Below the pieces are notes generated by a model, which saw only the letters and a program-made list of their open reading frames with translations, searched no databases and was not told the DNA's origin. A stretch of DNA of 64,000 nt from an uncultured Coriobacteriia bacterium (lineage in GTDB: Bacteria; Actinomycetota; Coriobacteriia; Coriobacteriales; QAMH01): the NCBI GenBank assembly GCA_902475535.1, contig CABRZR010000008.1:12217-76216 (forward strand), given 5' to 3'. Positions 27,204 through 61,700 of the stretch are shown one piece after another. Both the position numbers and the translations under genes were made by a program. Numbering within the stretch: position 1 is the first letter of the stretch; each line of letters opens with the position of its first letter.

Positions 27204-27232
27204 AAGCTACGGTTGGTCCCTTCACGACTCAT

Positions 27233-27265
27233 AATGAGACAGTTGCTCTGAGCAAGTGTCTCATT
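27233..27265. repeat. palindromic element, family P1
   Basis: AATGAGACAGTTGCTCTGAGCAAGTGTCTCATT. On the minus strand its TGA (27261-27263) is the pyrE stop codon. Confidence 0.85.
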
Positions 27266-40250: not shown

Positions 40251-41741
40251 TTAGCGATGGTAGTACGCGCGGCGCTCGAAGACGGGCTCGCAGCAGACGT
40301 TGATGCCGAGATTTGCGTAGGTTTTCTCATCTGTCGAGGAGATGATGACCGAGAAATAGGCATCGCAGCCGCGTAGGGCCTCGGTTGCATCGATTGCCCT
40401 CTGGGCGAGAGGGTCGGTGGCCGAGCTAATGGAAAGGGCAATAAGTGTCTCATCTGAGTGAAGACGCGGGTTAATGCTGTGCAGATGCTCGGTCTTGAGA
40501 TGGCAGATGGGCTCGAGGGCCGCATCACTCACGATATAGGTGCTGTCATCGATGCCGGCCACAACCTTGAGGGCGTTGAGCAGGAGCGATGAGGCAGCGC
40601 CAAGGAGCTCCGAAGTCTTGCCGGTGACGAGCGACCCATCGGGAAGTACCAGGGCGCCAGCGGGTAGGCCCGAGACTTCAGCTTTGGCGAGTGCGGCCTG
40701 GTGAGCGGGGGAAAGGTCGACATCGACACCCGCGTCCTTCATGAGAAGTTCGAGCTTGCCGACCTCCTCTTTGCCGGTGCCGACGCGTGCGAGCTGCTCG
40801 CGGGCACGGAAGTAGCGGCGTACGACCTCGTTGCGGGCTGCATCGCTGCAGACCTCATCGTCACAGATGCAATTGCCTACCATATTAACGCCCATATCGG
40901 TGGGGGATTGGTAGGGGCTTTCTCCCAGGATGCTCTCCATCATGGCCTTGAGCACGGGAAATGTCTCGACATCACGGTTGTAGTTGACGGCGATGCTCCC
41001 GTAGGCCTCGAGATGGAACGGATCGATGATGTTGTTGTCCTCAAGATCTGCCGTGGCGGCCTCATAGGCAATGTTGACCGGGTGCTTGAGCGGGAGGTTC
41101 CAGACCGGGAAGGTCTCGAACTTGGCATATCCGCAGGTGACGCCATGCTTGTTCTCGTGATAGAGCTGGGAGAGGCACGTTGCCAGCTTGCCGGAGCCCG
41201 GACCAGGGGCCGTGACGACGACAAGCGGGCGTTCCGTCACGATGTAATCGTTTTTGCCAAAGCCTTCATCGCTCACGATATGCTCGATATCTGACGGATA
41301 GCGGTCAATGACATAGTGACGGTAGCATTTGATGCCCATGGACTCCAGGCGGCGTTGATATGCCTCTGCATGGGGCTGGCCGGTGAATTGCGTGATAACG
41401 ACGCCGCCGACGAGCAGGCCCATCTCGCGATATACATCCATGAGACGCAGAACATCCTCGGAGTAGGCAATGCCGATATCTGAGCGATGCTTATTGCCCT
41501 CTATATGATTAGCGTTGATCGCAATGACGACCTCTGCATCATCGGCCAGGGTCATGAGCATGCGGACCTTGGAATCAGGCTCGAAACCAGGAAGCACGCG
41601 TGAGGCGTGGTAATCGTCGAAAAGCTTGCCACCGAATTCGAGATACAACTTGCCACCAAATTGCGCAATACGCTCCCTGATGCGAGCGGCCTGCATTTCG
41701 ATATACATGTCGTTGTCGAATCCGATGTGCATGCCATACAA
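40251..41741 (-). CDS. DUF1846 / UPF0371-family protein
   Basis: The 496-aa product reads ..MHIGFDNDMYIEMQAARIRERIAQFGGKLYLEFGGKLFDDYHASRVLPGFEPDSK.., matching the conserved N-terminus of this family. Confidence 0.8.
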   Translation of the reverse strand: MYGMHIGFDNDMYIEMQAARIRERIAQFGGKLYLEFGGKLFDDYHASRVLPGFEPDSKVRMLMTLADDAEVVIAINANHIEGNKHRSDIGIAYSEDVLRLMDVYREMGLLVGGVVITQFTGQPHAEAYQRRLESMGIKCYRHYVIDRYPSDIEHIVSDEGFGKNDYIVTERPLVVVTAPGPGSGKLATCLSQLYHENKHGVTCGYAKFETFPVWNLPLKHPVNIAYEAATADLEDNNIIDPFHLEAYGSIAVNYNRDVETFPVLKAMMESILGESPYQSPTDMGVNMVGNCICDDEVCSDAARNEVVRRYFRAREQLARVGTGKEEVGKLELLMKDAGVDVDLSPAHQAALAKAEVSGLPAGALVLPDGSLVTGKTSELLGAASSLLLNALKVVAGIDDSTYIVSDAALEPICHLKTEHLHSINPRLHSDETLIALSISSATDPLAQRAIDATEALRGCDAYFSVIISSTDEKTYANLGINVCCEPVFERRAYYHR

Positions 41742-42228
41742 CCTTCCACTCGAAATTTTTCATCATCATACACGACAGCCGAGACACGAAAAGCAGAGCG
41801 ATGCATTGAATCGGTTGGCGCGTCTCCACAAGAATCCACAAGAAAAGTGACCAAGATATTTTGGCAGAAATTTGGGTCTAACAGAGTGCCAAACGAAGGA
41901 AGATTTCCGGCCCCAAAAAACGAGGCTTCAGAATCGCGCCTGTGGCACTTTTAGAGACTGATTAGCATCGAAACACAGAGAGCAGTCAGAGGGGCTGAGA
42001 AGGCAGTATTTTGCACGAGAGAGCGAATTCAAAATCTGGAAGCAATAAGAGAGAATTTGAAAGCAAAATATTTAGCCCGTACCAGTTGAAGATATGTTAT
42101 TAAGTTGCATAAATAAGGAAATTTGAGAGTGACAGAAAGATCCATGTGGAAAAAGACGGGAGGCCCGAATTATCTGATTTGGAAATAAAAAATTATCAAT
42201 AAATAGATAATCAATATATCCGAATTTG

Positions 42229-43090
42229 AGATAAAGAACTATCTGAGAACAGAATAATAGAGCATATGAAGCCTCGTATTATTAACTGGCACCAGTTAAT
42301 AATACGAGGCTTCTGTTCATTATTTCGTATCAAGAATATATAATTATCAAAATTAAGATAAAGAAAATTAAATCGAGCAAAATTTGTGTTGAAGCAAAAC
42401 TATCCAAATATGAGATAAAACATTATCTAAACAATGAATAGATTAATTCTGATTGGCAAAATATTGATTCTCAGGTGAATTAACTATTAATCAGATAAAG
42501 ATTTATCAGAAGAAGGAATAATAAGATCGGACGAGAAATCAAAATCGGAAAGAGAAGAATCAGCGGGTACCAATAAAAAATATGCATTGTTTTAATCTAG
42601 ATTAGAGATAAAAGAGTTATCTAAAAATCAGTTAATGTTATATCTACAAATAAGATAAAGAATCCTCAGTTGATGATTTTCGCGAGTTCGAAAATACAAA
42701 CGGGAACAAATTGGAATCCTGTTGAAAAAGTCTGGAGGCTCTCTGAGGCACGAGAATCAATTTTGAGCCGTTTTAGTCTCTGCGAAGTCTGTGAGTCCGA
42801 GATGGTTTTCCAGAACGTCTTGAGGCCCAAAATAATCGCTCAAATTTTCAATGCCCAAGATCGAAATTATTATCTGTATTGTGAATAAAGATTTTCAGAA
42901 AATGATTGGATCTGATTTTTCGTTCCTCCTTCGAAACTTTATTATATAAACAGATAAAGATGGCCTGAATCAAAAGTATGGCAAATTAACTCAAATTTAG
43001 ATAAAGATTTCTCTTCAAACAAGCTTTAATAATTCTGCATTGAGAATAATAAAGGAACTCTATCTTAATCTTATTTAATGATAAAGTCTA
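42229..43090 (+). repeat. iteron-like array of nine same-strand AGATAAAGA-type motifs
   Basis: Exact AGATAAAGA occurs at 42229, 42356, 42493, 42653, 42952 and 42999. Variants occur at 42413 (AGATAAAAC), 42606 (AGATAAAAG) and 43079 (TGATAAAGT). One more exact copy lies at 46338. Several extend to AGATAA-N4-5-TTATCT palindromes. Confidence 0.75.
42268..42313. repeat. perfect 22-bp inverted repeat with a 2-nt loop
   Basis: GAAGCCTCGTATTATTAACTGG-CA-CCAGTTAATAATACGAGGCTTC, verified base by base. Confidence 0.9.
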
Positions 43091-43511
43091 ACAGGGTTGT
43101 CCGAAAAATCAGGAATCGAGTTGTGATCGAATCATGAATCGGCTGTTACCCAAACTCTCCATTCACGATAAAAAATCTTTGCGGAAATCTGCTAGAAACA
43201 CTCAAAAAATTAGGATAGCTATCGCGGGATTCAGCCCCCAAAACAAAGGCCTTAGAAGGGCTTAGAATCGCTTGTAGATATACCGTGAAAGCAAGCATCG
43301 ATTTTGTATAGAAAAATGTATATATTGCCTGATAAATCGCTGATATCATCAATTTGCTAACCAGGAGATAACACAGCTAAATCAGGCGTTAGCGCGGCTA
43401 CTGAATCACCTTCGCTATGCGTCTTGGAAATTGGGCCGTGAGAACCACTCAGAAGCCACAGAAAGCGTCAAGCTATCAATTTGTATTTTTTATAGATTTG
43501 CGTATATCACT

Positions 43512-43522
43512 TGGTATATAAT
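43512..43522 (+). promoter_or_regulatory. candidate extended -10 promoter (TGgTATATAAT) for the RHH gene
   Basis: Read from the sequence about 70-85 nt upstream of the RHH ORF. No good -35 box was found. Confidence 0.25.
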
Positions 43523-43590
43523 CTCAAAGACTTTAGATGAGTCAGATCGTCTAGTTACTCGCCAAGAATGTTCTCAAAAATGTAGGTTAG

Positions 43591-43845
43591 GTGGTTGAGT
43601 TGAGTTCAAAAGTCAAACAGGCGAACTTCCGTTTACCCCTCGAGTACATGTCGATGATTGATGATTTCGCGCATCGCGAAAACATCACCAAGGCGGCTGT
43701 CATCACCCGCGCCCTGGATTGCATGCAGGCATCGTACGACTCGGGTAACAACGGAATGCCCGTCACTGATTCCGGTTCGGGTATTTCCGAGCAGGAATTC
43801 AACGATCTTAAGAATCAGCTGAAGCAGGCGGAGGAGCGCGCGTAG
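43591..43845 (+). CDS. ribbon-helix-helix (CopG/Arc/ParG-like) DNA-binding domain protein, terminated by TAG 43843-43845
   Basis: The product reads ..KVKQANFRLPLEYMSMIDDFAHRENITKAAVITRALDCM.., a beta-strand/helix/helix RHH pattern. The start is GTG 43591 or TTG 43600 (after AGGTGG). Confidence 0.6.
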   Translation: MVELSSKVKQANFRLPLEYMSMIDDFAHRENITKAAVITRALDCMQASYDSGNNGMPVTDSGSGISEQEFNDLKNQLKQAEERA

Positions 43846-44508
43846 GCCGCAGAGCAGCGTGCGAACGACGCCGTTTTGGCTCGCGATGCCGCCGAGGCGA
43901 AGGCTCGCGAAGCGGTGGCGGATGCAAGCGTCGCAGCCCCCATCGTTGCCGCAGTCAACTCCGTTTCGGACGACGAGATCGAGCGCCTCAAGGCACTGGT
44001 TGCCAAGCAGGAGGCAAGCCTCGAAGAGAAGACAAAGGCACTTGCCGCCAAGGAAGCCGAGGTTGCAGCAAAGGAGGCGCAGATTGCCGAGCGCGACGCT
44101 CGCATCACGTCTCTGAGCGAGCAGCTCGGTGCGGCAAATGCCAAGGCTCAGCTGGCCGCCACCGCTCAGACCGTGAGCGTCGCACCCATAGATGGTGGTG
44201 GTTCACCCGGAGAAGATTCAACCCGTGCGCTGACCATGCTTAACATGCTTGGCGGTGTCATGGGTGCATTCCAGCAGCAGGTCGACGACGCTCGCCAGGT
44301 GGGTGAGCAAGAAGGCCGCTCGGCTGTTCAGAAAGAGCTCGAGGATATGATCAATAGGGCTCGCAACGATGGTTATCGTGACGCAATGACATATCTCGAT
44401 GACCGTGTCACAACCGCACGTGAGTCTGGGGCCAAGGAGGAAAGAGCACGTATCGCCAACATGGGATTCTTCGAACGCCGCCGTTACCTCAAGATTCACT
44501 TAGCCTAA
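43846..44508 (+). CDS. Ala/Glu-rich coiled-coil protein in the same frame as the RHH ORF, directly after its TAG (possible second half of one gene)
   Basis: The frame is identical to 43591 (43876-43591 = 285). The sequence across the stop reads AEERA*AAEQRANDAVLARDAAEAKAREAV..AKEAEVAAKEAQIAERDARITSLSEQL. No ATG occurs near the 5' end, and the track uses TTG 43876. Confidence 0.5.
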   Translation, partial: AAEQRANDAVLARDAAEAKAREAVADASVAAPIVAAVNSVSDDEIERLKALVAKQEASLEEKTKALAAKEAEVAAKEAQIAERDARITSLSEQLGAANAKAQLAATAQTVSVAPIDGGGSPGEDSTRALTMLNMLGGVMGAFQQQVDDARQVGEQEGRSAVQKELEDMINRARNDGYRDAMTYLDDRVTTARESGAKEERARIANMGFFERRRYLKIHLA

Positions 44509-44613: not shown

Positions 44614-44695
44614 ATGCCTGCAAACGCTCAAGGCGGCAGGCATTTTTGCTGTCAAAATCCTGCGCTGCTCGGGTCGCCGTGGGTGCTCGGGGCAT

Positions 44696-45019
44696 GAGAT
44701 TTCTCCACTTCGGCGCTGCGCGCCTCCGGTCGAAATGACAAGGGGGCGGGCTGCGTCCCGTGCTCGAAATGACGGGGAAGCGGGTCCCGCTCGTGCTCGA
44801 AATGACAGGGGAATGGGCTGCGTCCCGTGCTCGAAATGACGGGGAAGCGGGCCCCGCCCGTGCTCGGAATGGCAGGGGAGCGAGTCCCGCCCGTGCTCGA
44901 AATGGCAGTGCGGCGGGATCATTTTGATTGCTTGCGAAACGCGGATTGATGGCGAAATGGAGGGGCGGTTTTTGTCATTTCGACCGAAGCGAGCGTAGCG
45001 AGCGGAGTGGAGAAATCTC
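44696..45019. repeat. family FB composite: B unit + five tandem 33-34-bp units + inverted A unit
   Basis: GAGATTTCTCCACTT..GGTCGAAATGACA spans 44696-44740. The tandem units span 44741-44773, 44774-44806, 44807-44840, 44841-44873 and 44874-44906, each ending GTGCTCG(A/G)AATG(A/G)C. TGTCATTTCGACCGAAGCGAGCGTAGCGAGCGGAGTGGAGAAATCTC spans 44973-45019. Confidence 0.9.
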
Positions 45020-46656
45020 TCACGCCGCGCATCCGAAAGGGTTCTCGAAGCGTTTGGGAACACCACTTTTTGGTTCGCGTCGGTGACTCGATACGATAAT
45101 TGACTGGTACCAGTGATAGCGAAACGAGACGTTCTGGGCGGAAGGAAAATGAGAGTCGAAACGGTGATAGTGATAGGTCGATTTTAGGGTTTGCGAGTGC
45201 CTGATTTTGCTACTCACGAGAGGGCTGGGAAGCTGATATTTCGATGAGAATGTCGGTCAGTTGAGGCGTGCGAATGGGGCCGTGGCTTCTGTATCGGGAG
45301 CCGATTTTGAATCTAGGATTATGATGCGACGCCGCCAAAATCAGCTCATTATTTGAGCGATTCATGATGGAGAGCTGAAGCAAAATTGGCGGCGCGGGAG
45401 AATCGTGGAAGTCTGCCGAGGCTCCCGCGATTTCGTCTCAGGTTCCGCGCCAGCAAGTTTATGAACCGATTTTATTGGAGCGGGGGTTCCGCGCCTTGGC
45501 GCGGAGATGCGCGCTAAATTGCCGCGCGATGCCGTGGTCGTTTTTTGGAGCGCGGCGAGGCATACGGAGGATGGATTAGGGCGTGTGGTTGGTTGGTGGT
45601 TTTCGGGGGTGTGTTGGTCGTTGACGCGTGGAGAATATGGCTGTTGGGCACCATTGTCTTAGGGGTGGCTGCTGAACCGAAATGACCAAGATACTTGAAG
45701 TGAATAGGGAGGGGTAACGCGAGGCGCTATCTTGGTCTGGTGATGAGGATCCAAGGGGATTGCGATAGGTCGGTTGGTGCGTCTGGAGAAGCCCGAATTG
45801 AGTTGAATCGCTATAACGAATTGCCTCAAATGAGGAGAGGGTTGGGCGATTTCAGCCGAATCGCTATATGCAGAACGCGGTTTGGGAATGCGTGATTGGA
45901 TTTTTGGGAACGTGTGGAGGGATGGATGGGTCGCGTAGGTGTCTCCTAGAGCTGTTTTTGGCTCTGCAGCGAACGGCTTGGCTTCCTTGCGCAGCGAGGA
46001 CGAAAAACGATGCGTCAGAATCGATTCTAAGGCGTTTTGCCCGTATGGCAGGTATCCGAATGTGCCAGAAGAACATAAAAGGGCTTAAAACGCCTTAAAA
46101 TGCGCCAAATGTCTCCCAGGCTTGATTTGGAAGCCTTGGATGAGAATTGAGCGGCGCGAAAGGGGTTTCGAGCCCAATCTGGACCCCGATTCTCCTTCAG
46201 GGGAATCCAAATCGGACCGAAATCACGAAAAAGGGCCTCGATGCATAGTAGCGTCAGAATTGTCAATCATTTTTTCGCAAAGAGAGACGAGCAACTCAGA
46301 GAAGATAAGAAAATCCGTGCGAATATATCTAGAAATAAGATAAAGAATTTGAATGTTTGGCTGGTGAGGGCGCGAAAAATGCGCAATTGGTTTCGTGAAG
46401 AACTTGCCAACCAAATGTGGAGGAATTGTGAAGACGAAAAATAGTTTTGAGCTTGGGTTTTGCTTGCAAATGGCTAGAAATGGCCAAAATTCAACCCTTG
46501 CTGCTACCAAAATGCCTTAGCAGTCTAATTTACGTGTTTATCCAGGAGTTCTATAGACACTCTATACAAATGTAGCGCAAAAGCTATGTAATGCTTGCAG
46601 GGTGGTAGAAGCTGCTAAACCCGCAGGTAGATGGCACAATTGCCAAAGTTTCTCGC

Positions 46657-46685: not shown

Positions 46686-46717
46686 GCGCATGCCGGTGAG
46701 TGAGGAAAGTAATACGA

Positions 46718-49700
46718 ATGATCCAAAGCAACGAAAATATCTTTCGCGATGCACGTGCGTTACGCGCGCGTGCGCGCGTTATATATATGGTCGTTGCAGC
46801 GATCTTCCTCAGTCTCACCATTTCGGCAATTTCCGCCACGGTTTTCACCCCCGCCGCTTTTGCAGACGATACGCTCCTGGTTGCCCAAAGCGCCACGAGC
46901 GATGATGCTGTAAACGCGGGCGCGGATGATTCCGCCGGCACTCCTGTTGACCAGGCGATTCCTGGCGCGGAAGGTGGAGATTTCTCGACTCCGCTCACCG
47001 CGTTCGCTTCGCCCGAAATGGCAGGGGAGGGCGCTGTTGCCGAAAATGGCGCGGAAGACTTCTCCGAAGATGCTTCTGACCAGCAGATTTCTGGCGCGGA
47101 AGATCAGTCCGGGGAGCCGCTGAACGGCGAGGGCCAGCCTACCGAGAATTCGGCCGAGGAGACGGCCGACGAAGATCCCGCCGTCACGGAGAACGTCGAG
47201 AATCCCACCCCCGAAGAAACCACTACCGTTGAGGAGGAGACCACTCCCGACCAGGTCGACGTGCCTGGCGTCGAGGAGCCCGAGGAACCGAACGCCGGGG
47301 TCTATGGCCCGGTGCGTTATCTGGCCGCTGCATCTGCCCCGGTCATTGCGCCTGCTGCAGGCACCAATGCATTCTCGGACAACGCAAACATCACCTGGGA
47401 GTACAAGAATCATGTGCTGACGATCACCGCCGGTGGCAGTGACAAGCAGCTCACGACTTCCCTGACCGGATCGAACCTGCCCTGGCTTACCTCGACGACG
47501 AGCGCTGTCAGCCGTGCCGACATCCATAGTATTAAGTTCGTGGCCAATGGCTCGGGTGGCAAGGTCGCCCCGCTGGACCTGACGAGCTGGTTTGCTGATT
47601 ACACGGCACTCACCACCATCGACGTGACCAATCTGGACGTCTCCAAGGCCGTGAGCTTCGACAAGATGTTCCAGAACGCGAAGGTGCTCACCACCATTAC
47701 GGGTATGGAGACCTGGAAGACCGACAGCGGCATCTCGTTCCAGGACATGTTTGCCAACGTCGAGAAGCTCGAGACCCTCGACCTTTCGGGAGTCTATACT
47801 GCGACAGGTTCCGGCAGCAATGTTGCTGACGGTACCGAGAAGAATAGGCTCGACATGTTGGCCGGCATGAAGTCCTTGCGCACCATTACATTGCATCCTG
47901 ACACCGCGCTGACCGATACGGGCATCGAACGCATCTCCTCGCGCAATGACGACCTCGGTTACTGGATGGCCACGCGCGTCGTCCAGGGCGAGATCAACGT
48001 CTGGCAGGGCAAGCCCTCCGAGCTGATCCAGCGCTGGGGTACCAACGGTGCGGCGGACAACGGCCTCAAGGCGAACTTCACCCTCAACTTCTTCCCCGAG
48101 GGTTACTTCACTAGTAATAGTGCAATCAAGTGGTCCTACAACTGGAATCGCAAGACGCTCGAGATCGAGCTTGATCCGAGCATCGCTCATACGGACTTCG
48201 CCGTCACCGAGACCGCCAGCCAGCTGCCCTGGCTGCGTGCCGTTCCGAGCGACCTCATCAACATCATCACCTTCCACGAGACGATCGACGGCACTAATAC
48301 ATATAAGATGGTTGCACCCGCATCGATTGCGAACTGGTTTGCCGACTACGTCAACCTGAGCGTCTTCAGGGGTTCCGGCCTCGATGTCAGCAACGTCACG
48401 GACTTCAGCGGTCTGTTCAAGGGCTGCATCAACGCCGCGAACATCGACATGACGGGTTGGGTCATGGGCGCGTCGGCAAACATCTCCGAGATGCTCGGGG
48501 ACTGCCGCTCGCTCAAGACCATCACCGTCTCGGATACCACGCGCATTGCCGGTGCCGGCCTGCTCAACATCTCGTCGATGAACAAGGCCAACGGCGTCTG
48601 GGAGCGCTACGACGACAAGGGCAAGGTCAAGGATCCCTGGTTTGGCACGACCGACAACCTCGAGCGTCGTTACAACGGCACCATCCTGGGCGCTGCCCAC
48701 GGCGATGCCACCTATCGTTTCAACACCATCCTGCGTGGCGGTCGTTTTGACAACGACAACACCTGGTGGAAGTTCGACAACGTCAACAACATCCTTTCCA
48801 TCGGTGCCGACGATGATGAGGATGGCGAGACTCTGGGCAAGCTCATCAGCGAGACCGCCAGCGCCAACGGCACCCGTTACATGCCGTGGCTCGAGCAGGT
48901 CGATGGTCAGCCCATCGTCACGATACGCAACGTGGAGCTGATCAAGACCTATAACGGTGCCCAGCCTGCTGACATGTCCTATTGGTTCAAGGACTTCGTG
49001 AAGCTCTTCGACTTTGACGGTACCAGTCTGGACACGAGCCAGTGCGTTGGGTTCACGGGCCTGTTCATGAACGATGTCAATCTTGGTGGCATCAACAATG
49101 GCGTTCTCGACATCAGCTCCTTTGACATGAGCCACAGCATGAGCGCCAATCGCGCCGACATGTTCAAGGGTGTCAACAAGTTGCTTAATATCAAGCTGGG
49201 CCCCAAGGTGCAGCTCATCGGCTCCGGTCTGGACAAGCTCGACCTCCATGACCAGACGAGTGGTACCTGGGTGCGCAAGGGCTCCGATACCGACTACTGG
49301 ATCGGCACCTCCGCCAGCTTGCTGAATCGCTACGGCAACGCCGCTTCCGAGGGCGCCGCCCTGGGCGAGGCCGCACTCTACTTCTGGGATGTCACGTTGC
49401 TGCGCAACGTCTTCCAGTCCAATGGCAACATCTGGTGGGAGTATGACTCCGATGCCGCAATGCTGCGCATCGGTGCCACCAACCCGAGTGGCAACGTCAC
49501 CATCACCGAGCGCCCCGACCCCGTCAACGTGCAGAACGACCAGCCTTGGCTGCTCGTCATCGGCAAGGCCGCCGGTAGCGGCGAGCCCGCCCGTGCCCTG
49601 GGCCGCTCCTCGATTCGCTATATCGTCTTCGAGGACAAGCTCCACATGCTGTATCCGGCCGACTGGTTCAAGGACTACGTCAATCTCGAGAACCTGCGCT

Positions 49701-52700
49701 TTGCCAAGGGCATGGACTTCACGGGTGCCACGAGCCTCGCGAACTTCTGCGCCAATTGCACGGCAATGCACACCATCTCGGGTATGGGCAACTTCACTAA
49801 TACTACGGGGATCACCTCCGTGGCCCATATGTTCGATGGCACGAGGTTTGCCACCTTGGCCGGCGTCGATGTCTTCGACACTTCCAACGTGACGGACTTC
49901 AGCTACTTCCTCGCCAACAACACGGTACTGCGCACCTTCGACAAGGCCGCAGCCTGGAACACCTCCAAGGGCACCAACTTCAGCTACTTCTTCTACAACA
50001 ACCGCTCCCTGTCCACGCTCGACATCTCCGGTTGGGACATGAGCAAGGCGACGACCGCGAGCTCGCGCGAGAACTTCCTCGCAGGTCTCAATTCGCTCGA
50101 GATGCTGTTCCTGGGCGACAAGATCATCCTGACCAATTCTGGTCTGGGCGACGCCACGCTCGCCCCGGATCGTGCCCAGGACAAGGGCAGCTTCCAAGCC
50201 AGCACCTTCGATCCCTCGACGGCCACCAATGCCAGCGTGACCCACAAGTGGCTTGGCCCCTCGGCCGACCTCGAGCGCCGCTATCCGGTCACCAGCCGCA
50301 ACTACGGGAGCAACTTCCTCTACGAGTGGAGGGCCCGTAACTACTCCGGCCGCTTCAGCGATGCCAACGGCGGTGACATGGCCTGGTGGAAGTACGATGC
50401 CGTCACGGGCATGCTGACCGTGGGCACCGACACCACCAATCCCATCCAGCTCGCCCTTGACCCGACCGAGGCCGAGGCCGCCTGGATTCCCGTCATCGAC
50501 GCCATCTACGAGGCCGAGAACCAGTACGACGGCCTGGCCAACGTCAAGTCCTTCGTCGCCGAGGCCCTCAACGGTAACCCGACCATCCGCCTGTCGGCCT
50601 GGAGTCTCGCGAACCTCTTCGCCACCTATTACACCGGGCTCACGAGCTTCAACGGCGCGGGTCTGGCAACGGACCTCGTGATCAGCCTCGCCTCCATGTT
50701 CGAGGGCTGCGACTCGCTCGTCAGCTTCACCGGCGTGGAGAACTGGGACACGGGCAAGGTCACCACCGTAAACTCCATGTTCAAGGACACCAAGAGCGCC
50801 ATCCAGATCGAGGGCACCCAGAACTGGAACACTTCGGCGGTCACCGACTTCTCCTCGATGTTCGAGAACGCCACCGGTGTCGAGAGCATCCTCAACATCG
50901 GCACCTGGGACGTCTCGGCGGGCACGACCTTCGAGAACATGTTCAATGGTGCCACGAGCCTCAAGTACCTCAACATTGCCTTTACCCCGGCTGCCGGTGG
51001 TCACATGAACGTCGCGGCCAACCGCAACGGCATGCTCGCCAACGCACCGGCCATCCTCGAGCTCACGGTCGGCAACAACTCCTACCTGGCCGACACGGGC
51101 ATCGATGACAACCACAAGTCGTCGCGCGGCTCCTGGGAGCGTCGCGACGAGTCGTTCACCATCGTGTGGTTTGGCACGACGAAGAACCTCATGGTGCGCT
51201 ATCCGGTGTCTGACCCGGCAAGCGACCTGGGCGTCGTCAAGTACACCTGGGAAGAGGGCACGCTGCGCGGTCGCTTCACCAACGAGAACGCCTGGTGGCA
51301 GTTCACCTACACCGATGACGAGAAGACCCATGGTGACCTCATAATCGGCCTCATCGACACGAGCACCGGTGCCGACCACGTCATTACCGAGACGGCTGCC
51401 GAGCTGCCCTGGGCCGACGCCTTTGGCGACAACAGGGTTTCGGCCATCACGATGCAAAACGGCGTCACCTTCGTGGGCAACAACCTCGAGGGTTGGTTCG
51501 AGAACTACACCGCGCTCGAGCACTTCGATGGCACCAGCATGAACGTCAGCGGCGCCACGAGTCTCGCCAACCTCTTCAAGGGCGATGACAAGCTCATCGT
51601 CGTCGAGGGCCTCTCCAACTGGAGCGTCCACAACGTGCTCAGCTATGACTCGATGTTCGAGGGCTGCGCATCGGTCACCTCCATCGACGTCCACGGCTGG
51701 GAAATGAACGTCAACGCCACGCGCGTCAACATGTTCAAGGGCCTCGATTCCATCATCTCGCTGTACCTCGGCCAGTACATCAGCCTCGAGGGCACCGCGC
51801 TGTTCGATTCCGACACGCGCAACGCCACCATGGGCTCCTGGATGCGCGCCACCAAGGACGCGGACGCCGTGCTCTATGCCGATGATCCCTGGTTTGGCAG
51901 CTCCGATGACCTCGTACGCCGTTACGAGAACCCTGCCGGCAACGACCACGGCTGGAAGAACACCGACACCTATGGTGCCTACTATTACTGGCAGACCGGC
52001 GTGTTCCGCGGCCGCTTTGGCGAGAACGACAACGCCTGGTGGTCCTATGACCGCGGCACGCTGACCTTTGGCATGGACCTGCCCGAGGTGTGGTCGAGCG
52101 AGAACACCGTCGAGCCCGTCGTGACCGACCGCTCCATCTACGAGGCCGACACCATCGACCATGAGACCGGCAAGGTCGTCAAGGGCGAGCACAGCTCGCA
52201 GCTGCCTTGGGAAAAGGCCTCGAGCGTGGACGGCATGTTCAACGCCTGGACCGACGTGGTCTCCGTCACGGCGCAAACCACCGAGTACAACGGTGTCACC
52301 TACAAGATCAACCCGCGCAACCTCTCCTTCTGGTTCAAGGACTACAAGGGCCTCAAGAGCTTTGATGGCGTCAACATCAACATGAAGTCCGACGAGCAGT
52401 CCTTCGAGTCGCTGTTCGAGGGCTGCACGAGCCTCGCCGTCCTCAACTTCTCCGGTTGGGAATGGGATGGCGACATGGAGCGCACCAACATGCTCGCCAA
52501 CCTGCCGGCGCTCTCCAGCCTCACCATCAAGCGCGTCGTGCTCGAGGGCACGGGCCTGGGCCTCGATGTGAACGGCAAGGAGCTTGCCGCCCGCGCCGCC
52601 AACGTGGGCCGTTGGGTCATGGACAACAACATCGTCCATGACGTGCCGTGGTTTGGCCCCACCGCCAAGCTCGTGAGCCGCTACGACGTGATCCTGTCCG

Positions 52701-55700
52701 TCGCCATCGACGACGAGCACCTGTACACCTGGGACTCCAAGTACGCCGGTAGCCGCGTGGACAACAACCCCAATGCCTGGTGGATCTTCTCGCTGGTCGA
52801 TGACGAGGAGAACGACGTCAAGAAGGGCACGCTCATCATGGGGTCGGATGCCAGCGAGGATCGCGACATCCACAAGTCCGGTACGGCCACCTTGGTGGAC
52901 GGCAAGATGGAGTACAGCGGCTCCACCCTGCAGTGGGCGCTGTCGCCGGGCACCACGGTCGTCAAGACCGGCACCCTCGACAACATCGTCGAGATCACCG
53001 AGGACCTCATTGCCGGCATCCCCAACATTGCGGCTGTCAAGCATGTCAGCACCTTCTCGACTCTGGTTCCGCAGGACACGATGCTCGGCTGGTTTGCCAA
53101 CATGGTGAACCTCGAGAGCTTCGACGGCACCTTCCTGGACGTCTCCCATGTCACCAACTTCAACGGCCTGTTTGCCGGCTGCAAGAAGCTCGCCTACGTC
53201 AAGATCGGCAACTGGATCATGCATGATGCCGGCCGCGATGCCGACGTCACCGACATGTTCCGTGACTGCCAGTCGCTCTACAAGCTCACCGTGGGCAAGG
53301 GCGTCGTGCTCTCGCAGGCTTCCGGCCTCAGCGAGACGCTGACGAATCGCGAGCCCGACAAGGGCACCTGGATCTACAACCTGTGGTTTGGCTCCTCGAG
53401 CGACCTGGCCGACGACTACACCAACGCCGGTGTCTCGAGCGCGGCCGACGCCCTCTACACCAGCGGCTCGGTCGTCTCGACCGAGATCACCTACACCTGG
53501 GACGAGGGTAACCTGGGTGGCCGCTTCCCGAGCAACCCCAACGTCTGGTGGCGCTACACGGGCGTCGTGCGCGACGGCATGGTCGGCCTGCGCGTGGGCC
53601 TGCTGCGCATCGGCAGTGACTCCGAGGACAACAACGCCATCACCGAGACCTCCGTGCAGCTGCCCTGGCGCAAGCTGCTCAAGAACGTGAACACCATCAC
53701 CGAGGTGCGCACTGCCGCCGACGGCAGCTATCCCGTCTCGGTCAAGGACCTCTCCGGTTGGTTTGGCACCTACCTGGCCGCCGACAACTCGACCCGCGCC
53801 CATACGGGCCTGGACACCTTCAAGGGCGAGGGCTTCATCCTGGACAAGCCCGGTAACGAGTGCATCAGCCTCGAGAGCATGTTCGATGGCGCGAACAAGC
53901 TTGCCAAGGCCACGGGTATGGAGCACTGGAAGACCTCGACCGTGCGCAGCTACGTGCGCATGTTCTATGCCTGCTACGTGCTCTACGACCTGGACATCCA
54001 GGATTGGGACATGACCACGGCGCACATCCAGAACACGCCCACCACTCAGGACATGTTCCATGGCATGGGAACCTACCAGATGAAGCTCAACAGCTTGACG
54101 CTTGGTCCCAATGCCGTGCTCGAAGGCACCAACCTGTGCAAGCTCGTCGATTCCCAGCAGGGTGGTCGCACCTTCCACAACACCGGTGACGGCGTGTGGG
54201 TCATGGGCGATGCCCTCAATTCCGATGCCATCACCGGCGATACCGACACGCCGTGGTGGGACACCACCGAAGCTTTCATCGCCCGTTATGCTCTCGACAA
54301 GACCGCTCAGAGGACCGCGGCTTCTATTGCATCGCCCACCGTGGCCGCTACCGTGGCTCCGCCTGCTGATCTCATCCACAAGTACGTCTGGAATGCAGGC
54401 ATGCTTGGCGGCAATTTTGAGAGCAACGCCAACGTGTGGTGGAAGATTGACCAGGAAACGCGTGATCTCACCATTGGCGTGCACAACAAGGACCTTTGCA
54501 ACGTGGTGACTGAGTACAACCACCTCGTCGATGGCAAGGTTGTCGACGGCTATAAACAGTACATGACTCCGTGGTACAAGATCGGCGCCGCCATCTCCAG
54601 CTTCAAGGTCGATACGAAGAACGGCAAGGTCGCTCCGCTCTCGCTCGAGGGCTGGTTCGACGAGGATTGCCTCTTCCAGGAAGGTGGTCTGGGGGGCCTG
54701 CTCGGCACTCATGCCTGGAACGCCAACAACGTCATGGACGAGTGGCAGCGCTACGTAAACGAGATGTGGATTGACCTCGATTACGAGTCCACTGCTCAGG
54801 GCGTCAAGCCGTCCGATGGCTACAACATGACCGATTCCGTGCGTCCCTACTGGGAGAGCTGGAAGTGCTTCATCGCTGCCTGGGAGTATGGTGGAAATCG
54901 CTGGGAGGGCGATGCATATAACCCCTGCGTCGAGAAGATCTTCACGCCCGTGTACCTCGAGGCCGGCGAGACTTACTATCTCTCGCTCGACTACACCATG
55001 ACCTACTATTACTGGGGCGCGGGCAACTTCGGTTTCGAGATCTACGATAACGTCGTTCCGCGTACGGGCTCGAGCCGCCTTGCCGGTGTCGTGTTCCCCA
55101 ACTACGAGTACATGAACAATACCGAGCTCAGGCACGGTTACGTCACCTACACGGCTCGCAGGACCGGCATCCACTACGTGGGCTTCAACGGCCAGAACTT
55201 CCATTGCTACAATGGTGATTGGACCTTCACCTTCAAGGACCTCTCCCTGGCCAAGTACACGAAGTTCACCTATTTCGATGGCTCGGGCCTGGACACGACC
55301 AACACCACGTCCACGGAACGCATGTTCAACAACGCCGTGTTCCTGCGTGACATCATCGGCGTCGACGATTGGGACACCACGCGCGTCACCACCATGCAGT
55401 CCACCTTCCGCAACACCAAGGTGCTCACGACGCTCGACTCCATCAAGGAGTGGAATGTCTCCAACGTCGTCAACTTCAGCCGTATGTTCGAGGGCATGCA
55501 GTCCATGGACGCTACGCTCAACCTCGACTGGGTCACCACCTCGGCCGAGGACCTGAGCTACATGTTCCTTAACAACACCTTCGTCCCCAACACCAACTAC
55601 CTCAAGCTGTGGGACGTCTCCAAGGTCACCAATTACACGGGCATGTTCAAGAACGCTTCGGCGCTCGAGGACGCGGCCGCCATCTCCGACTGGCGTCTGG

Positions 55701-58700
55701 GCATCGACGTCACGAGCGACCTCACCGAGATGTTCATGAACACGCCGGCGCTCGTCGCCATCGACACACGCGGCTGGAACCTGGGCAGCCCCACCATCAT
55801 CGACCGCATGCTCTGCAACGCCACGGCCCTGCGCTCCATGGCCTTTGGCGTCACCACCTCGCTCAAGGGCGCTTACCTGGGCCTCAACGAGGAAGGCAAG
55901 CAGTTCCCCTCGCGCAATGCCCGCGCCGGTGGTTGGATACGCCTCAACGCCTCCAAGGATTGGTTCGGCTCCACGGCCGACGTCGCGGCCCTGTACCCGA
56001 CGCTCAACTGGGGCGACACGGTCGAAGGCCCCTACACCTACATCTGGACCGACGAGCAGACCGGCGGCAACTCCTTCCCCAGCAACGAGTACGCCTGGTG
56101 GAAGTACATGAAGGACTCCAAGACCCTCATCATCGGCATCGACGAGGAGAAGGCCAATAACCCCGACTTCGTCAACTACCACACCTGGGTCACCGAGACC
56201 TTCGAGGAGCTGCCCTGGTTCGTCTCCGAGGACGGCACCGAGAACCTCATCTACACCCCCGAGGAGATCGAGAACGTGCAGTTCGTCTCCAACGTGCACG
56301 TGATCAACCCCTCGCGCTGGTTTGCCGGCTACGTGAACCTGCACTCGGCCGACCTCTCCGGCATGCGCATCGACCTGGCCGGTGACATCTCCGGCCTGTT
56401 CGATGGCGACGTCAAGCTCCAGAGCGTCATCGGCTTGGACGACTGGTACAACGAGATCGGTGCTGCCACGGATGCCGCCATCGACGAGGCCAACCTCACG
56501 CTGCCCACCGACAAGCAGCTCGTGAAGGACGACACGATCATCACGTCCTTCGAGAACCTCTTCAAGGACAATACGCTGCTGCGCGAGCTCGAGACGCTCG
56601 AGAACTGGGACGTCTCCACGGTCACCAACATGGCCGGCATGTTCTGGGGTGCCGCCACGCTCAACGACATCTCGCAGCTCAACAACTGGACGACCGCGCA
56701 GGTCACGACCATGGAGAACATGTTCCGCGGCATGCTCAAGCTGCGCAAGGTCGATGCCGTCGTCAACTGGGACACCTCGTCGTGCGCCAACTTCGACGGT
56801 ATGTTCCAGGATTGCAAGACCGTCGTCTCGGTGGACCTCACGAGCCCCAACTGGAACACGGACGCGGCCATCTTCCCCAACGGCGACGGCACCAACCGCC
56901 TGCAGGCCATCAACATGCTCGCGGGCATGGATGCCCTCAAGTTCCTCTACGTGAAGCCCACGACCATCCTCACGGGCACGGGCTTGGAGAAGTCCGACAC
57001 GCATGAGGGCCGCGATGGCCGTTGGACCCTGCAGACCATCAATGGCTACGTGCCGTGGTGGGGTAGCGCCACCGACCTCGTGGAGCGCTATCCGATGGAG
57101 TACAACCCCGAGCTCGACCCGTTTGGCGGCCCCGACGGCATGAACCTCACCTACCGCTTCGAGTTTGGCAAGCCGGGCGGCCGCTTCGAGAGCAACAAGT
57201 TCGGCTGGTGGTACTTCGACAACGATCCCGAGTCCGAAACCTACAAGACGCTCGTCATCGGCGTTGACACCGAGTGGGTGCAGGTCACGGTCACCAAGGA
57301 TGGCTCCGGCAACAAGAGCTTCAGCTACACGAAGGTGCCCGTCGATAACTTCGTCGTGACCGAGACCGCCGACTATCTGCCGTGGCTCACGCCGGCATCC
57401 GGCGCCATCGAGCTCACGCCCGAGGCGGCCCGTCCGCTCATCGAGCATATCTCCTTCAACAACAACGGCATCACGCCGACGGACATCTCGCGTTGGTTCT
57501 ACGGGCTCACAAACCTCAAGGACGCCGACCTAGCCGGTGTCGAGATGAGCCAGACGCGCTCTATCGCCGGCCTCTTCGAAGGCGACGCCAAGCTCGAGAC
57601 GCTCAACACGGGCAATAAGGGCCAGCGCTGGGCCGCCATGCCCAATGTCACGACTGCCGCCTCCATGTTCAAGGGCTGCGCGATGCTCGGTGCCGTCACG
57701 GGCATGGAATACTGGGATATGGCCCAGGTGCTCAACTTCTCGTCCATGTTCCAGGGCTGCACCGTGTTGCCCAACCGCATGATCGAGCAGGCGGGCAAGT
57801 GGCAACTCAACACCGATACCGCCACCACTGTGAGCATGGCCAACATGTTCCAGAGCTGTGCCACCATCACCACCCTCGACGGCCTGCTCGACTGGAACAC
57901 GAGCCGCGTCAACACCTTTGCCTACATGTTCGAGAACTGCGCCTCGCTGCTCTATGCCAACGGCGTGCGCAATTGGACCACCGACATCTGCATGGACTAC
58001 ACGGCCATGTTCCAGGGCGACCGCGCCCTCAAGGAGTTCAACGCCAAGAACTGGGTCGTGGACCGTGGCTGCGCCTACGAGAACACCTTCTACCTGTGTA
58101 TGGATCTCAACCGCTGCGTGCTGGGTGAGGGGTGGTCCACCATCAAGGAACCGACCCGCGTCGATCCGTTCCAGAACATCGTCAATGTCACGCTCGATCC
58201 CGGTCAGTCCTACAGCTGGAAGTTCACCGCCCCGCAGTGGGCCGACGGCTTCTACGTCGAGATCTTCAACTACATCTTCGACAGCCACTATCCGAGCTGC
58301 CCGGCTACTCACGGCTACATCTACGGTGCCGAGAAAGAGGGCATGCCCCTGACGATGTTCTGGACCGACTACAGGCATGGTTCCACGAGCGCTCTTATCG
58401 ATGGCCGCTTCTGCCAGATCGATATCGTCGTGCCCGGTGGCTGCGCTGCTAAGTCCTACATCAACTTCCAGGTGCACTACGTCTATCCCGAGAAGATGAT
58501 CTGGGAGTGCGAGGAGGACCATTGGACCGGCACCTGGGATAACATCAACGAGGGCTTTGACAAGTACCAGGCAACCATGGCCGGCACCTACGTGTGGGGC
58601 GACTTCAAGGCCGGCGCGCGCTTTGACTCCAACGACCGTGCCTGGTGGACCCTCGAGATTCGCGACGACAGCTACGAGCTTGTCATCAGCCTCGACGAGG

Positions 58701-61700
58701 GCGACAGCACCCGCGGCAAGGTCAACACCGACCCGGCCAAGGGCCTGACCGTCACCGAGACCCGTTTCTACGTGGATGAGGCGCTCAAGTCCCAGCTCGG
58801 CTGGTCGCCCTGCAGCCGCTTCAAGGATTACGCGCGTTACGTCAAGAAGGTTAGCACCTATAACGGTGTTAACGTGCTATATCCCAATAGCTGGTTCGAG
58901 AACAACGTCAAGCTCGAGAGCTTCGACGGCTCGGGCCTGACCGTGGGCGATGCCACGGATATGAATCGCATGTTCAATAACGACGGCAAGCTCTCGAGCT
59001 TCACGGGTGCCGAGAACTGGGATGTCTCGCACGTTCTCGACTTCAGCTACATGTTCAACATGTGCGCCTCGCTCGGGGACATCAGCCCGCTTGTCGGCTG
59101 GCATCTCAATACCGATACGGGTAATACCATCAACATGACCCACATGTTCTATGGCACGCGCATCGTGGACCTCAACCCGCTGGCCGCGCCGCAGCCCGGC
59201 CAACCCACCGGTTGGGACATGTCGCACGTCCTGGACACGAGCTACATGTTTGCCGAGAACAAGTTCCTCGTGGACCAGACGCCCATTGCCCATTGGGATA
59301 TGTCCACCAATGTCAACTTCAGCTTCATGTTTGCCAATGACAGCGCGCTTGCCACGATGGATCTCTCACGCTGGCAGATGCGTCGCGTCGTGAGCACGAG
59401 TCCGTACTATGCCGTCAACCTCGAGAACATGCTCGTCGGGCTTTCGAGCCTCGGTCAGCTCACGGTGGGCGAGTCGTCCCTGCTGCAGGGCACGGCGTTC
59501 AACAATAGCCTGTCCAATCACGGCCCAACAGACGGCATGTGGCAACTCACGTCTACGCGCGACGGCATCGAGGATGGCCTGCTCTTTGCCGACGGACGTA
59601 GCCCCTGGTTTGGCGACACCTCCAAGCTCGCCGCACGCTACACCAACGACCCCTATTCGGCCGACGCCCTCGTCTTCAAGTGGGTTCCCAAGCAGCTGGG
59701 CGGCCGCTTTGACAGCAATCCGTACGCCTGGTGGCGCTACGACAAGGACCCGGAGTCGGATACCTACGGCACGCTCACCCTGGGCGTGGACGACCACGAC
59801 AGCACCACCAAGTACGTGGCTGCCGATGACGACACGACCGTTTACGGCAAGAACGTGACCGAGCTTTCCGGCACCGTCGATGGCATCGAGTACGTCCTTC
59901 CCTGGTTGCAGGTCACCGACGACGAGGCCACCATCACCGACACCTCGCTTCCCACCACCCCCAATCTCGTCACCAAGACGATCATGGCCGTGACCGACGT
60001 CAAGAACGTCGTCAGCTTCAACGGTCTACTCATCGACAATCCCGCCAACTGGTTTGCCGGCTACTCCGCCATGGAGAGCTTCGACGGCACCCAGATGGAC
60101 GTCATCAACGCCACGGACATCTCCCACATGCTGCAGGGGACGAGCTCGCTCACCTCGCTCACGGGCAACTGGAACGTCTCCAACGTGACCGACATGTCCT
60201 ACTTCCTGAATGGCGCGAGCTCGCTCGAGTCGATCGCGGCGCTCACCAACTGGGACGTGACCAAGGTCACCACCATGGCCCACAGCTTCGACGGCATGAA
60301 GAGCCTGCCCAATCTCGACGAGATCGGCTCCTGGCAGATCAACAGCCTCGAGGATGCCTCCTACGCCTTTGCCAACACGGGCATCACCAACCAGCTCGCC
60401 ACCATGCACTGGCCTATTCTGGGCACCATGAACCTCACGGGCATGTTCGCCGGCAGCCATGAGCTCGCCACCGTGGACATCTCCTACTGGGATACGACCA
60501 ACTGCACCGTGACCGACATGTTCAAGGAGCTGCGCAGCCTCGGTGCCGATACCGGCTACCTCAAGGTCTCCGGCTTCAGCACCCTGATGGGCACGAGCCT
60601 TGACGGTATCTCGACGCGCCTTGCCAACCAGGGCATGTGGGTGCGCCAGGAGACCACGCCCATCGAGTGGTTTGGCAACGGCAACTCGCTCATCAAGCTG
60701 TATCCGGCCACGGGCAAGGGCGTCAACGAGGATACCAACGTCTTCACCTACAGCTGGGACCCGACCCGTCTGGGTGGCCGCTTCGAGAGCAACCCGTACG
60801 TCTGGTGGATCTTCTATCCCAACGCCCTGGGCGACCATGCGGCCAAGACCCTGACCATCGGCTCCGACCCCGGTTGCCCGAGCACCGAGGTGACCGAGAC
60901 CAACACCGGCACCACCGATGAAGCCGGTAACGTGACTAACTTGCTGCCCTGGCTCGTCTACAACGAGCACATCGATGGCCCCATCGTGCCCAAGGGCAAC
61001 GTCGTGCATTTCGCCGCCGAGAGCGAGGTCACGCCGGTGGACGCCGCAGGACTGGCGGCCGAGAGCCGCGGCAAGAGCTTTGAGGGCTGGTTCAGCGGCT
61101 ACAGCGTGCTCAAGGACTTCGATGGCAAGGGTCTCGTGATTGGCAATAGCATCACGTCTTTCAAGGACCTGTGGAACGGGGACTCGAGCCTTACCAGCAT
61201 CAGGAACATCTCGCACTGGGATGTCTCCAACATCACCAATATGGCCAACTTGCTCAAGGACAACAGCTCGCTCGAGACCTACGGCGAGTTTGGCACCTGG
61301 GCTGCTGGTCTGGGCACGGGCAAGCTCGTCAACATCTCCGGCCTGCTCTACAACAACGACAAGCTCACCAACGACGACCTGGCCTACTTTGGCAGCTGGG
61401 ATGTCACGGGTGTCACCGACATGAGCTACCTGCTCTACGATACCGATGCCATCACGACGCTCGTCAACCTCGAGAACTGGCGCGCGAGCAGCCTGCAGAC
61501 CATCAACTACGCCTTCGCCGAGATGGAGGAGCTCACCACGCTCGACGGCCTGGCGGATTGGGCACCGGGTCGCGGCGGTGCCGTCTCGCTGTTCACCATG
61601 GCCCACATGCTCGAGAACGACCTCAAGCTCTCCGACGTGACGGCCATCACCGGTTCTGCGGCCGGCGGATCGTTCTGGGACGTCTCCAACGTCACGGACT

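Follow-up and report, generated by a model that had tools for sequence, protein, structure and literature searches.

A conserved chromosomal array of near-palindromic, operator-like sites upstream of a ribbon-helix-helix-like gene and a giant secreted-protein gene in uncultured Coriobacteriia

What kind of element is the array of repeated sites found at 42-43 kb of a 64,000-nt stretch of DNA from an uncultured Coriobacteriia bacterium (contig CABRZR010000008.1; the whole stretch is called the window below)? The array lies in an AT-rich gap between a DUF1846 gene and a gene for a ribbon-helix-helix (RHH)-like, coiled-coil protein, which is followed in turn by a gene for a giant secreted protein. 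An initial annotation, made from the sequence alone, had noticed in this gap six exact copies and three close variants of the 9-mer AGATAAAGA, with a seventh exact copy further on. It offered three options for them, namely plasmid or phage iterons, a partition centromere or a multi-site operator, with the RHH protein as the candidate binder. Among these options the multi-site operator is the best fit. Judged by its sequence features, the array appears to work like such an operator: it is real, conserved and unusually large, and the register between its sites is preserved. Membership in the iteron or plasmid-centromere families is not supported.

Structure, spacing and conservation of the sites

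All the copies and variants noted earlier are present at their positions (Table 1), as are the short palindromes into which several of them extend. The 9-mer occurs seven times in the window, always on the plus strand and never on the minus strand, against an expectation of 0.16 from dinucleotide shuffles of the window and of 0.058 when a first-order Markov model is built on just the AT-rich segment; none of 2000 simulations under this model gave more than two copies. The impression that the motif exceeds chance thus holds against both the window-wide and the local AT-rich null.

The 9-mer is, however, only the right, better-conserved half of a ~25-bp near-palindrome, aTTATCt-N7-AGATAAAG. The full unit is ATTATCT-N7-AGATAAAGA with the core TATC-N9-GATA, and another TATC is often found 6-7 nt further on; repeat finding also returned longer families such as TATCCGAATTTGAGATAAAGAACTATCT. 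When 41 plus-strand GATAA copies from four lineages are aligned, TTATC appears at -14 to -10 in 63-76% of them, with an A preceding the G and AG coming after the GATAA. A spacing analysis run without anchoring on the motif recovers the same arrangement: TATC-N9-GATA is seen 14 times against 0.2 expected, GATA-N6/7-TATC 14 times against 0.2 expected per spacing, TATC-N19-TATC 10 times and GATA-N19/20-GATA seven times. Units often abut, so that intervals of 13 and of 10-11 bp alternate between successive half-sites, giving a period of 23-24 bp. The sites are dyad-symmetric with a fixed half-site spacing, as is characteristic of operators of dimeric factors, and their ATC-N9-GAT core has the form of the LysR-type box (T-N11-A / ATC-N9-GAT). 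There is no base-level autocorrelation or periodicity and Tandem Repeats Finder reports no array, which rules out a degenerate satellite.

Scanning the window with a position matrix trained solely on the other species yields 14 sites at 42168-43175, more than had been listed initially, and another at 46323-46347 (the distal site below). The sole further match in the other 62 kb of the window is weak (score 10.2) and lies inside a coding region; the local null predicts 0.3 matches per strand scoring at least 10. Across ~1.6 Mb of unrelated loci, mostly of 38-47% GC, only 10 matches score at least 14, whereas each array holds 10-13 such sites. Three of the sites in the window (centres 42432, 42626 and 42879) score higher on the minus strand. 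Thus, the earlier statement that the motifs share one strand is correct where the extended right half is concerned (GATAAA, 10:1) and incorrect for the core, for which the plus strand carries 11 GATAA and seven TTATC. The strand bias of the 9-mer arises because the outer bases of the two halves differ, with GATAAAG on the right and GATAAT (on the other strand) on the left.

The spacing between sites ranges from 23 to 300 bp and is irregular, yet falls on multiples of 11.5 bp. Contiguous 23-24-bp spacing is confined to doublets and triplets, the remaining sites being dispersed. Site centres are in phase at 11.5 bp over more than 1 kb, with a Rayleigh R of 0.76 in the window, 0.90 in the lineage of contig L002 and 0.84 in that of contig L083; random positions reached these values in two, none and none of 2000 trials, respectively, when periods of 9-13 bp were scanned. 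With one site retained per cluster, 11.5 bp is still the best period in all three lineages, and the raw positions of the GATAA/TTATC pentamers peak at 11.5 bp in five of six sets. Lineage-specific indels shift distances between orthologous sites (230/232 versus 195 bp, and 299 versus 413/414 bp), and the two shifts, of ~35 and ~115 bp, amount to 3 and 10 units of 11.5 bp.

The comparison rests on genomes of uncultured gut Coriobacteriaceae/Coriobacteriia that are retrieved by the DUF1846 protein (94-96% protein identity) and on human-gut contigs found by scanning metagenomes with an alignment of the RHH-like family, including two from the same species (L086, L108) and many from a second lineage (L087-L091, L110, L117). 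The genomes retrieved with DUF1846 keep the gene order DUF1846, AT-rich gap, RHH-like gene, second gap, giant gene. The full region is represented by three lineages, i.e. the window with L086 and L108, L002, and L083 with its relatives, and in part by L004 and L092; at least three related species retain the array. Between lineages the flanking genes are ~85% identical in DNA, as against 56-65% for the AT-rich region. Within 42150-43180, the columns identical in all three lineages make up 76% of the half-sites (ten positions counted per site), 31% of the spacers within sites and 34% of the remainder. Eight sites are orthologous across the three full lineages while the others are lineage-specific; even within the species one copy has been lost and one gained in L108 relative to the window. 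The sites are thus conserved in orthologous regions while their flanks diverge, as is characteristic of multi-site operators. Together with the dyad symmetry and the kept register, this upholds the earlier proposal that they are repeated sites of a kind likely to be bound by a protein.

Twelve assemblies from two lineages are all colinear, with no inversion variant among the contigs that span the AT-rich region, and the segment is accordingly not an invertible (phase-variable) one. Many metagenome and MAG contigs of this clade (L001, L003, L004, L092, L110, L112, L115 and L116) end within or beside the AT-rich region, which suggests low coverage or assembly difficulty there.

The distal site lies 380 nt upstream of the ATG of the giant gene, at the 5' edge of ~370 nt of conserved upstream DNA. 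Equivalents at the same distance from the giant gene are present in L083-L091, L110 and L117, and a degenerate one in L002. The segments 42639-42663 and 46324-46348 are identical at 24 of 25 bases, spacer included, and the longer segments 41880-42330 and 45970-46420 align above shuffled sequence (z ~3.7). A related observation is that 41916-42240 and 46003-46347 share the same layout of ~330 nt, consisting of AAAAACGAnGCnTCAGAATCG..., GGGCT.A.AA.GC and an array-type site. The first of the pair starts the AT-rich region, the second lies upstream of the giant gene, and the AAAAACGAnGCnTCAGAATCG element is kept in four lineages.

Table 1. The sites and the features around them, in window coordinates; scores are those of the position matrix.
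Feature	Coordinates	Strand	Remarks
Site 1	42168..42192	+	Right-half variant GAAATAAAA; score 16.9; orthologs in L002 and L083
Site 2	42214..42238	+	Exact AGATAAAGA at 42229; score 21.5; TATCC-N8-AGATAAAGA-AC-TATCT
Site 3	42341..42365	+	Exact AGATAAAGA at 42356; weaker left half; score 10.8; ortholog in L002 only; gone from same-species contig L108
Site 4	42398..42422	+	Variant AGATAAAAC at 42413; score 18.5; common to all three lineages
Site 5	42419..42443	-	23 bp from site 4; score 11.6 on -; common to all three lineages
Site 6	42478..42502	+	Exact AGATAAAGA at 42493; score 18.7
Site 7	42591..42615	+	Variant AGATAAAAG at 42606; opens a triple spaced 24 and 23 bp; score 17.6; inside block 42566-42643, matched in L003/L083 at 78-79% (blastn); common to all lineages
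Site 8	42613..42637	-	Middle of the triple; score 14.2 on -, 11.7 on +; common to all lineages
Site 9	42638..42662	+	Exact AGATAAAGA at 42653; score 16.4; repeat family D4
Site 10	42866..42890	-	Reversed, TTATCTGTATTGTGAATAAAGA; score 16.5 on -, 11.8 on +; ortholog in L083
Site 11	42937..42961	+	Exact AGATAAAGA at 42952; score 18.5; common to all lineages
Site 12	42984..43008	+	Exact AGATAAAGA at 42999; score 21.2
Site 13	43064..43088	+	Variant TGATAAAGT at 43079; score 14.7; ATCTTAATC-N9-GATAAAG kept in L002, L083 and L092
Site 14	43151..43175	+	Weak; score 10.7; window lineage only
Distal site	46323..46347	+	Exact AGATAAAGA at 46338; score 19.4
AT-rich ORF-free gap (1.85 kb) holding the array	41742..43590	.	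Between the DUF1846 (-) and RHH-like (+) genes
DUF1846 gene	40251..41741	-	Pfam PF08903 + PF20921, E = 4e-175; divergent from the array
RHH-like / coiled-coil gene	43591..44508	+	305 codons, broken by in-frame TAG at 43843-43845
Giant secreted protein gene	46718..64000, past window end	+	Signal peptide, DUF285/BspA-like repeats

The chromosomal setting

The gap that holds the array, which is free of open reading frames (ORFs), has a GC content of 0.24-0.40 in 200-nt windows, against ~0.60 for the window, and the same position and composition recur in L002, L003/L083-L091, L004 and L086/L108. It contains no conserved small ORF, and no Rfam family or tRNA was detected in it even at E-values up to 1. 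Hidden small genes can be dismissed, in that translated matches between relatives span several frames on both strands over the same blocks; the conservation is therefore non-coding. Matches to the sigma-70 consensus promoter are at chance level (five against 6.7 expected), and GATAAA does not fit as a -10 box.

Further elements of the gap are recorded here in their own right. A perfect hairpin with 22-nt arms (42268-42313; -33.5 kcal/mol as RNA) lies inside the array; only its core, CTGG-N2-CCAG, is kept elsewhere, with a symmetric change to CCGG-N2-CCGG in L004, and the related words GnACCAGTTRA recur at 42081 and 42571. At 41825-41844 there are two tandem copies of TCCACAAGAA, the TCCACA core of which is kept in four lineages (ATATCCACA in L004, ATGTCCACA in L083), and at 42145-42153 a conserved TTTTCCACA; both the tandem and the latter element are DnaA-box-like at 7-8 of 9 bases.

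The left 41 kb of the window are of housekeeping character, with histidine biosynthesis (the his operon), methionine synthase (metH), peptidases and a helicase. The neighbours of the array include, beyond DUF1846, genes for SpoVAC-like, radical SAM, MarR-family and CstA proteins along with housekeeping operons, and this synteny is conserved, placing the array on the chromosome. The MarR-family gene (37118-37570) is the sole regulator gene in the left 41 kb, and its own upstream region has no site, which speaks against its product as the binder. No replication, partition, integration or transfer gene (rep, parA/parM/tubZ, integrase, relaxase) was found among the scanned ORFs of the left 41 kb, no partition NTPase (ParA, ParM, TubZ) among those ORFs or the called genes of L083-L085, and neither dnaA/dnaN nor a LysR-family gene (HTH_1/LysR_substrate) among the window ORFs scanned. 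Blastn of the array and tblastn of the RHH-like protein returned no plasmid or phage relatives, which speaks against a plasmid or phage origin, and a scan of viral contigs for the site pattern gave 21 isolated single matches, i.e. the chance level. Dispersed intergenic hairpins resembling repetitive extragenic palindromes, AATGAGACAGTTGCTC...GACATTGTCTCATT, occur at 11194-11227, 17681-17719 and 27230-27267 with about -14 to -20 kcal/mol. The family is also present in related species (in L083 at 6485, 11002, 12377 and 12605), some copies being followed by a T run.

To the right of the array come the RHH-like gene on the plus strand, a stretch of 2.2 kb in which no gene is convincing, and the giant gene, also on the plus strand. 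The plus-strand frame of the latter is open throughout 46700-64000 (more than 5767 codons) with a GC content at third codon positions (GC3) of 0.87, and a ribosome-binding site precedes the ATG. A 3562-aa ORF on the minus strand (46760-57448) was considered as the giant gene instead but is a shadow ORF of this frame, as are the other long minus-strand ORFs up to 64 kb. With the giant gene on the plus strand, both downstream genes share the orientation of all exact motif copies. In L083 the orthologue of the giant gene lies on the same strand, with a called length of 15,435 aa, and weak homologues of the protein carry PF03382/PF13306. A search for the array beside giant-gene homologues elsewhere, with the N-terminal 500 aa as query, gave only six weak matches.

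By blastn, the interval that separates the RHH-like gene from the giant gene (44625-46413) shows no similarity to the L083 lineage and hardly any to L002. It holds five to six tandem copies of a GC-rich 33-34-nt unit (CCCGTGCTCGAAATGACGGGGAAGCGGG...) at 44723-44917 and, at 45000-46100, non-coding DNA with a strong excess of G over C (skew 0.23-0.42 in 200-nt windows) and no detected gene. L002 has other GC-rich palindromic repeats (GTGACAGGGGCC...) in this interval.

The RHH-like gene and its upstream region

The RHH-like protein combines a strand-helix-helix N-terminus with a long coiled coil and a conserved C-terminal domain. It has 194 unnamed homologues but no Pfam match even at E-values up to 10, and a sequence search of solved structures with the family gave coiled-coil noise only. 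An AlphaFold2 model shows an unstructured stretch and two N-terminal helices followed by long helices; as modelled, the stretch and two helices are what would be expected of a monomeric RHH. The top Foldseek neighbours of the model are Arc, CopG, CdbA, AmrZ and MatP, all at E>1.

In the window the gene is broken by its TAG at codon 85, whereas it is intact in L002 (312 aa, with Q at this position). The TAG allele is also found in the independent contig L116, while L086, L108, L112 and L115 have CAG, and the 210-aa fragment downstream of the TAG forms a protein cluster of 16 members (P0017). The TAG variant thus has the look of a knock-out or split allele that circulates naturally in the species, and its recurrence indicates that full-length RHH-like protein is dispensable in some strains, in which the array is intact.

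No array site is found in the 400 nt before the start codon of the RHH-like gene in either clade, and other repeated boxes, TAGAT and GTATA/TATAC, occur there instead. The last 119 nt before the start (43472-43590) are 92% invariant in four lineages, as compared with 15-20% difference in the RHH-like coding sequence and ~40% in the AT-rich DNA. They hold a TATAAT box and an inverted TAGA...TCTA element (TTTAGATGAGTCAGATCGTCTAG), have no Rfam match, and may represent a leader RNA or else a promoter and operator under tight constraint. At 43279-43514, GTATA/TATAC and CTATAGA/CTATACA boxes are clustered (five against 1.2 expected), and they are absent from the array (none against 4.5 expected). 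A pair of such boxes lies ~160 nt upstream of the giant gene (46550-46570), and they also precede the RHH-like gene in a distant clade (contigs among L081 and L093-L127). These boxes are a candidate for the RHH-like protein's own operator.

In this distant clade the RHH-like proteins are 51-60% identical, with an identical N-terminal strand (KVKQANFRLPLEYM), and the gene sits between Zip and 5-formyl-tetrahydrofolate cyclo-ligase genes. There is neither an AT-rich array nor any site scoring at least 14 in the fetched flanks, which extend up to 6-10 kb where the contig allows. Hence the array site does not accompany the RHH-like gene wherever its predicted DNA-reading strand is conserved, as autoregulation would entail.

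A proposed mechanism and its alternatives

We hold with moderate confidence that the array is a multi-operator cis-regulatory platform on which an oligomerising DNA-binding protein would control the RHH-like and giant-adhesin genes. From the features described above we infer the binding, the oligomerisation, the looping and the genes controlled as follows. A dimeric, sequence-specific protein would bind the ~14 oriented near-palindromic operators, and the bound dimers would oligomerise along or across the 1-kb AT-rich spacer. As the sites share an 11.5-bp register, bound dimers could touch and build one extended nucleoprotein complex. This complex is predicted to silence or gate promoters in or beside the AT-rich DNA, i.e. 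that of the RHH-like gene and possibly that of the divergent DUF1846 gene. It could also loop over ~3.3 kb to the single operator before the giant adhesin gene, which would give switch-like control of a very costly gene. The RHH-like and giant adhesin genes are the probable targets, with the divergent DUF1846 gene possibly another.

Precedents for parts of such a mechanism are available. The operators OR and OL of phage lambda have the form TATC-N9-GATA, are 23-24 bp apart and engage in OL-OR looping; HipB operators are TATCC-N8-GGATA; and OxyR and other LysR-type sites consist of two dyads 22 bp apart. The array shares with OR/OL the outer bases and the 23-24-bp centre-to-centre spacing, as well as the pairing of a cluster with a distant single site a few kilobases off and a regulator-like gene between the two. 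Its 23-24-bp pairs and triples would, by analogy, match the geometry of cooperative operators. It differs in having 14 sites over 1 kb as opposed to three to four over 80 bp, in the lack of conservation of the inner operator bases, in its 11.5-bp long-range register, and in its context, which is not that of a prophage and has no cI, Cro or Xre gene nearby. A literature search on the site pattern led only to the LysR-type TATC-N9-GATA and returned nothing on AT-rich intergenic DNA of Collinsella. The array core is exactly ATC-N9-GAT, and its dyads about two turns apart match the binding of a tetramer. However, LysR regulators are normally encoded divergently beside their target, whereas the 64-kb window has no LysR gene, and LysR sites come in twos or threes rather than fourteen.

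Several points weigh against the platform. The non-array AT-rich DNA of the window amounts to only ~360 nt, so that the confinement of the motif to the array and the distal site, which a motif scan was to decide according to the initial annotation, stands for the sequence examined and with a small AT-rich control. The aligner lines up similar words and may thereby favour the conservation figure for the half-sites. Tests on cluster leaders alone give p-values of only ~0.03, 0.0002 and 0.03, and the common ancestry of the three lineages makes their phase statistics non-independent. A period of 11.5 bp, as against the 10.5 bp of relaxed B-DNA, needs a protein-imposed or underwound geometry. Finally, the sites are tied to promoters by position alone, and the only regulators nearby are the RHH-like and MarR-family proteins (the latter 4.6 kb away), neither of whose promoters has a site.

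One alternative is a special case of the platform with a named binder: the RHH-like coiled-coil protein would place one dimer on each GATAA/TTATC half-site (~11.5 bp), with the coiled coil and C-terminal domain linking the dimers into a filament or bridge. We regard this as possible but do not favour it. The gene lies directly downstream in the orientation of the sites and in synteny in every array-bearing lineage, its strand-helix-helix N-terminus has only RHH proteins as top structural neighbours, and a long coiled coil together with a strongly conserved C-terminal domain hints at higher-order assembly. Alternating short subsites about one turn apart also resemble those of Arc, CopG, omega and ParR; in the known RHH arrays (the 11-bp repeats of R1 parC, pSK41 parC, the omega heptads, CopG and Arc) one dimer per subsite builds a continuous superstructure, and here likewise the array adjoins an RHH-like gene. 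Those arrays are, however, contiguous tandems beside a partition NTPase or at a single promoter, whereas the present one is dispersed and chromosomal with no NTPase. Moreover, the Pfam and Foldseek results fall short of an RHH assignment, and the protein's own proximal 400 nt, including the 92%-invariant stretch, lack sites and carry other boxes. The clade with an identical N-terminal strand has no site in its fetched flanks, and both the window and L116 combine the nonsense allele with an intact array. The RHH protein proposed earlier thus stays a candidate, but a weakened one. Related to this is a bolder reading, which we consider rather doubtful, that the sites serve to register a chromatin-like filament with one subunit per ~11.5 bp (~90-100 over 1.1 kb), made by the RHH-like coiled-coil protein or by an undescribed Coriobacteriia nucleoid protein. 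It is unlikely that the array is instead the nucleation zone of a nucleoid-associated silencer (an H-NS, Lsr2 or Rok analogue) with the GATAAA sites as high-affinity entry points in register. The GC content does drop steeply, to 24-36% against 60% for the genome; the sites are spread across 1 kb and not gathered at one promoter, their long-range register survives indels, and the neighbour is a giant, probably costly surface-protein gene of a kind often silenced. The GATAAA core is also part of the high-affinity H-NS motif, tCGATAAATT, and there are descriptions of secondary H-NS sites that are phased. Yet the defined dyad with its invariant G and C points to base-specific recognition by a dimer and not to minor-groove sensing of AT content. 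The AT-rich DNA is intergenic and, as the giant and RHH-like genes are themselves GC-rich, is not a foreign gene in need of silencing. Other AT-rich stretches (43200-43670 and 46350-46620) have no sites, we know of no H-NS/Lsr2-type silencer in Coriobacteriia, and none was found for this taxon.

A transcription-level alternative, which takes the motifs for oriented roadblocks (like the 'stoperators' of mycobacteriophage L5) or for leader signals read in the RNA or the non-template strand, is very unlikely. The strongly strand-biased GATAAAG (10:1) is oriented like both downstream genes, the putative leader or promoter region of the giant gene contains the distal copy, and control by anti-termination or roadblocks is a frequent requirement of very long genes; but a partner half-site at a fixed 9 nt and the 11.5-bp register indicate recognition of the duplex. 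Besides, the possible RNA stems comprise just 5-6 A-U pairs with uncompensated left-arm variants, three sites are reversed, no upstream plus-strand gene feeds the array, and Rfam matches are absent as noted above. An element of replication or segregation, be it an iteron origin, the plasmid-type centromere of an integrated element, or a chromosomal origin or terminus, is more improbable still. It would account for repeated sites in very AT-rich DNA next to an RHH-like gene. The 23-bp unit is close to the ~22 bp of iterons, the 11-12-bp unit to parC/tubC repeats, and the cumulative GC skew has its maximum near 46 kb. Plasmid iterons (RK2, P1, F, pSC101) are likewise ~20-bp repeats, with a unit of 22-23 bp, in AT-rich DNA, but they are tandem direct repeats beside a rep gene on a replicon, whereas the sites here are palindromic, irregularly spaced and chromosomal, with no rep gene. 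The locus is neither an iteron origin nor a plasmid centromere because it lies in a housekeeping chromosome with no rep, par or integrase genes and no plasmid or phage homology; the first two options of the initial annotation are not supported on these grounds, and the repeats are dispersed, not tandem. GC skew is positive throughout 1-46 kb, which excludes a chromosomal origin, and DnaA boxes with at most one mismatch number six in the window, two of them in the array region, against 6.8 expected. The change in the sign of the skew coincides exactly with the start of the plus-strand giant gene and is therefore a feature of that gene, not of a terminus. Equally improbable are functionless relics of a local duplication or a decayed mobile element in fast-evolving AT-rich DNA. 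The 24-of-25 identity shared by an array segment and the distal segment, the above-shuffled alignment of the longer segments around them and the turnover of copies in L108 would suit such relics. Against them stand the invariance of the half-sites over three lineages relative to their surroundings, the register kept through independent indels without base-level tandem periodicity, and the lack of terminal repeats, of a transposase and of inversions or rearrangements in the 12 assemblies.

Giant surface proteins are among the costliest genes of a gut bacterium, and Coriobacteriaceae (Collinsella-like) are common in humans. The locus offers a defined, conserved and testable control region for such a gene, with a sequence rule for the sites, a spacing rule that withstands indels, a matching site before the giant gene, and natural alleles with and without an intact RHH-like gene. 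If the sites proved common in all AT-rich DNA of these genomes, they would merely be the signature of a global regulator. If the filament were true, the array would act as a silencer or insulator of a new kind, dedicated and sequence-registered, by which an abundant human-gut lineage turns a giant adhesin gene of 17 to 46 kb on and off. A single protein covering the whole array would form a sequence-registered nucleoprotein complex of a size unusual for bacterial chromosomes.

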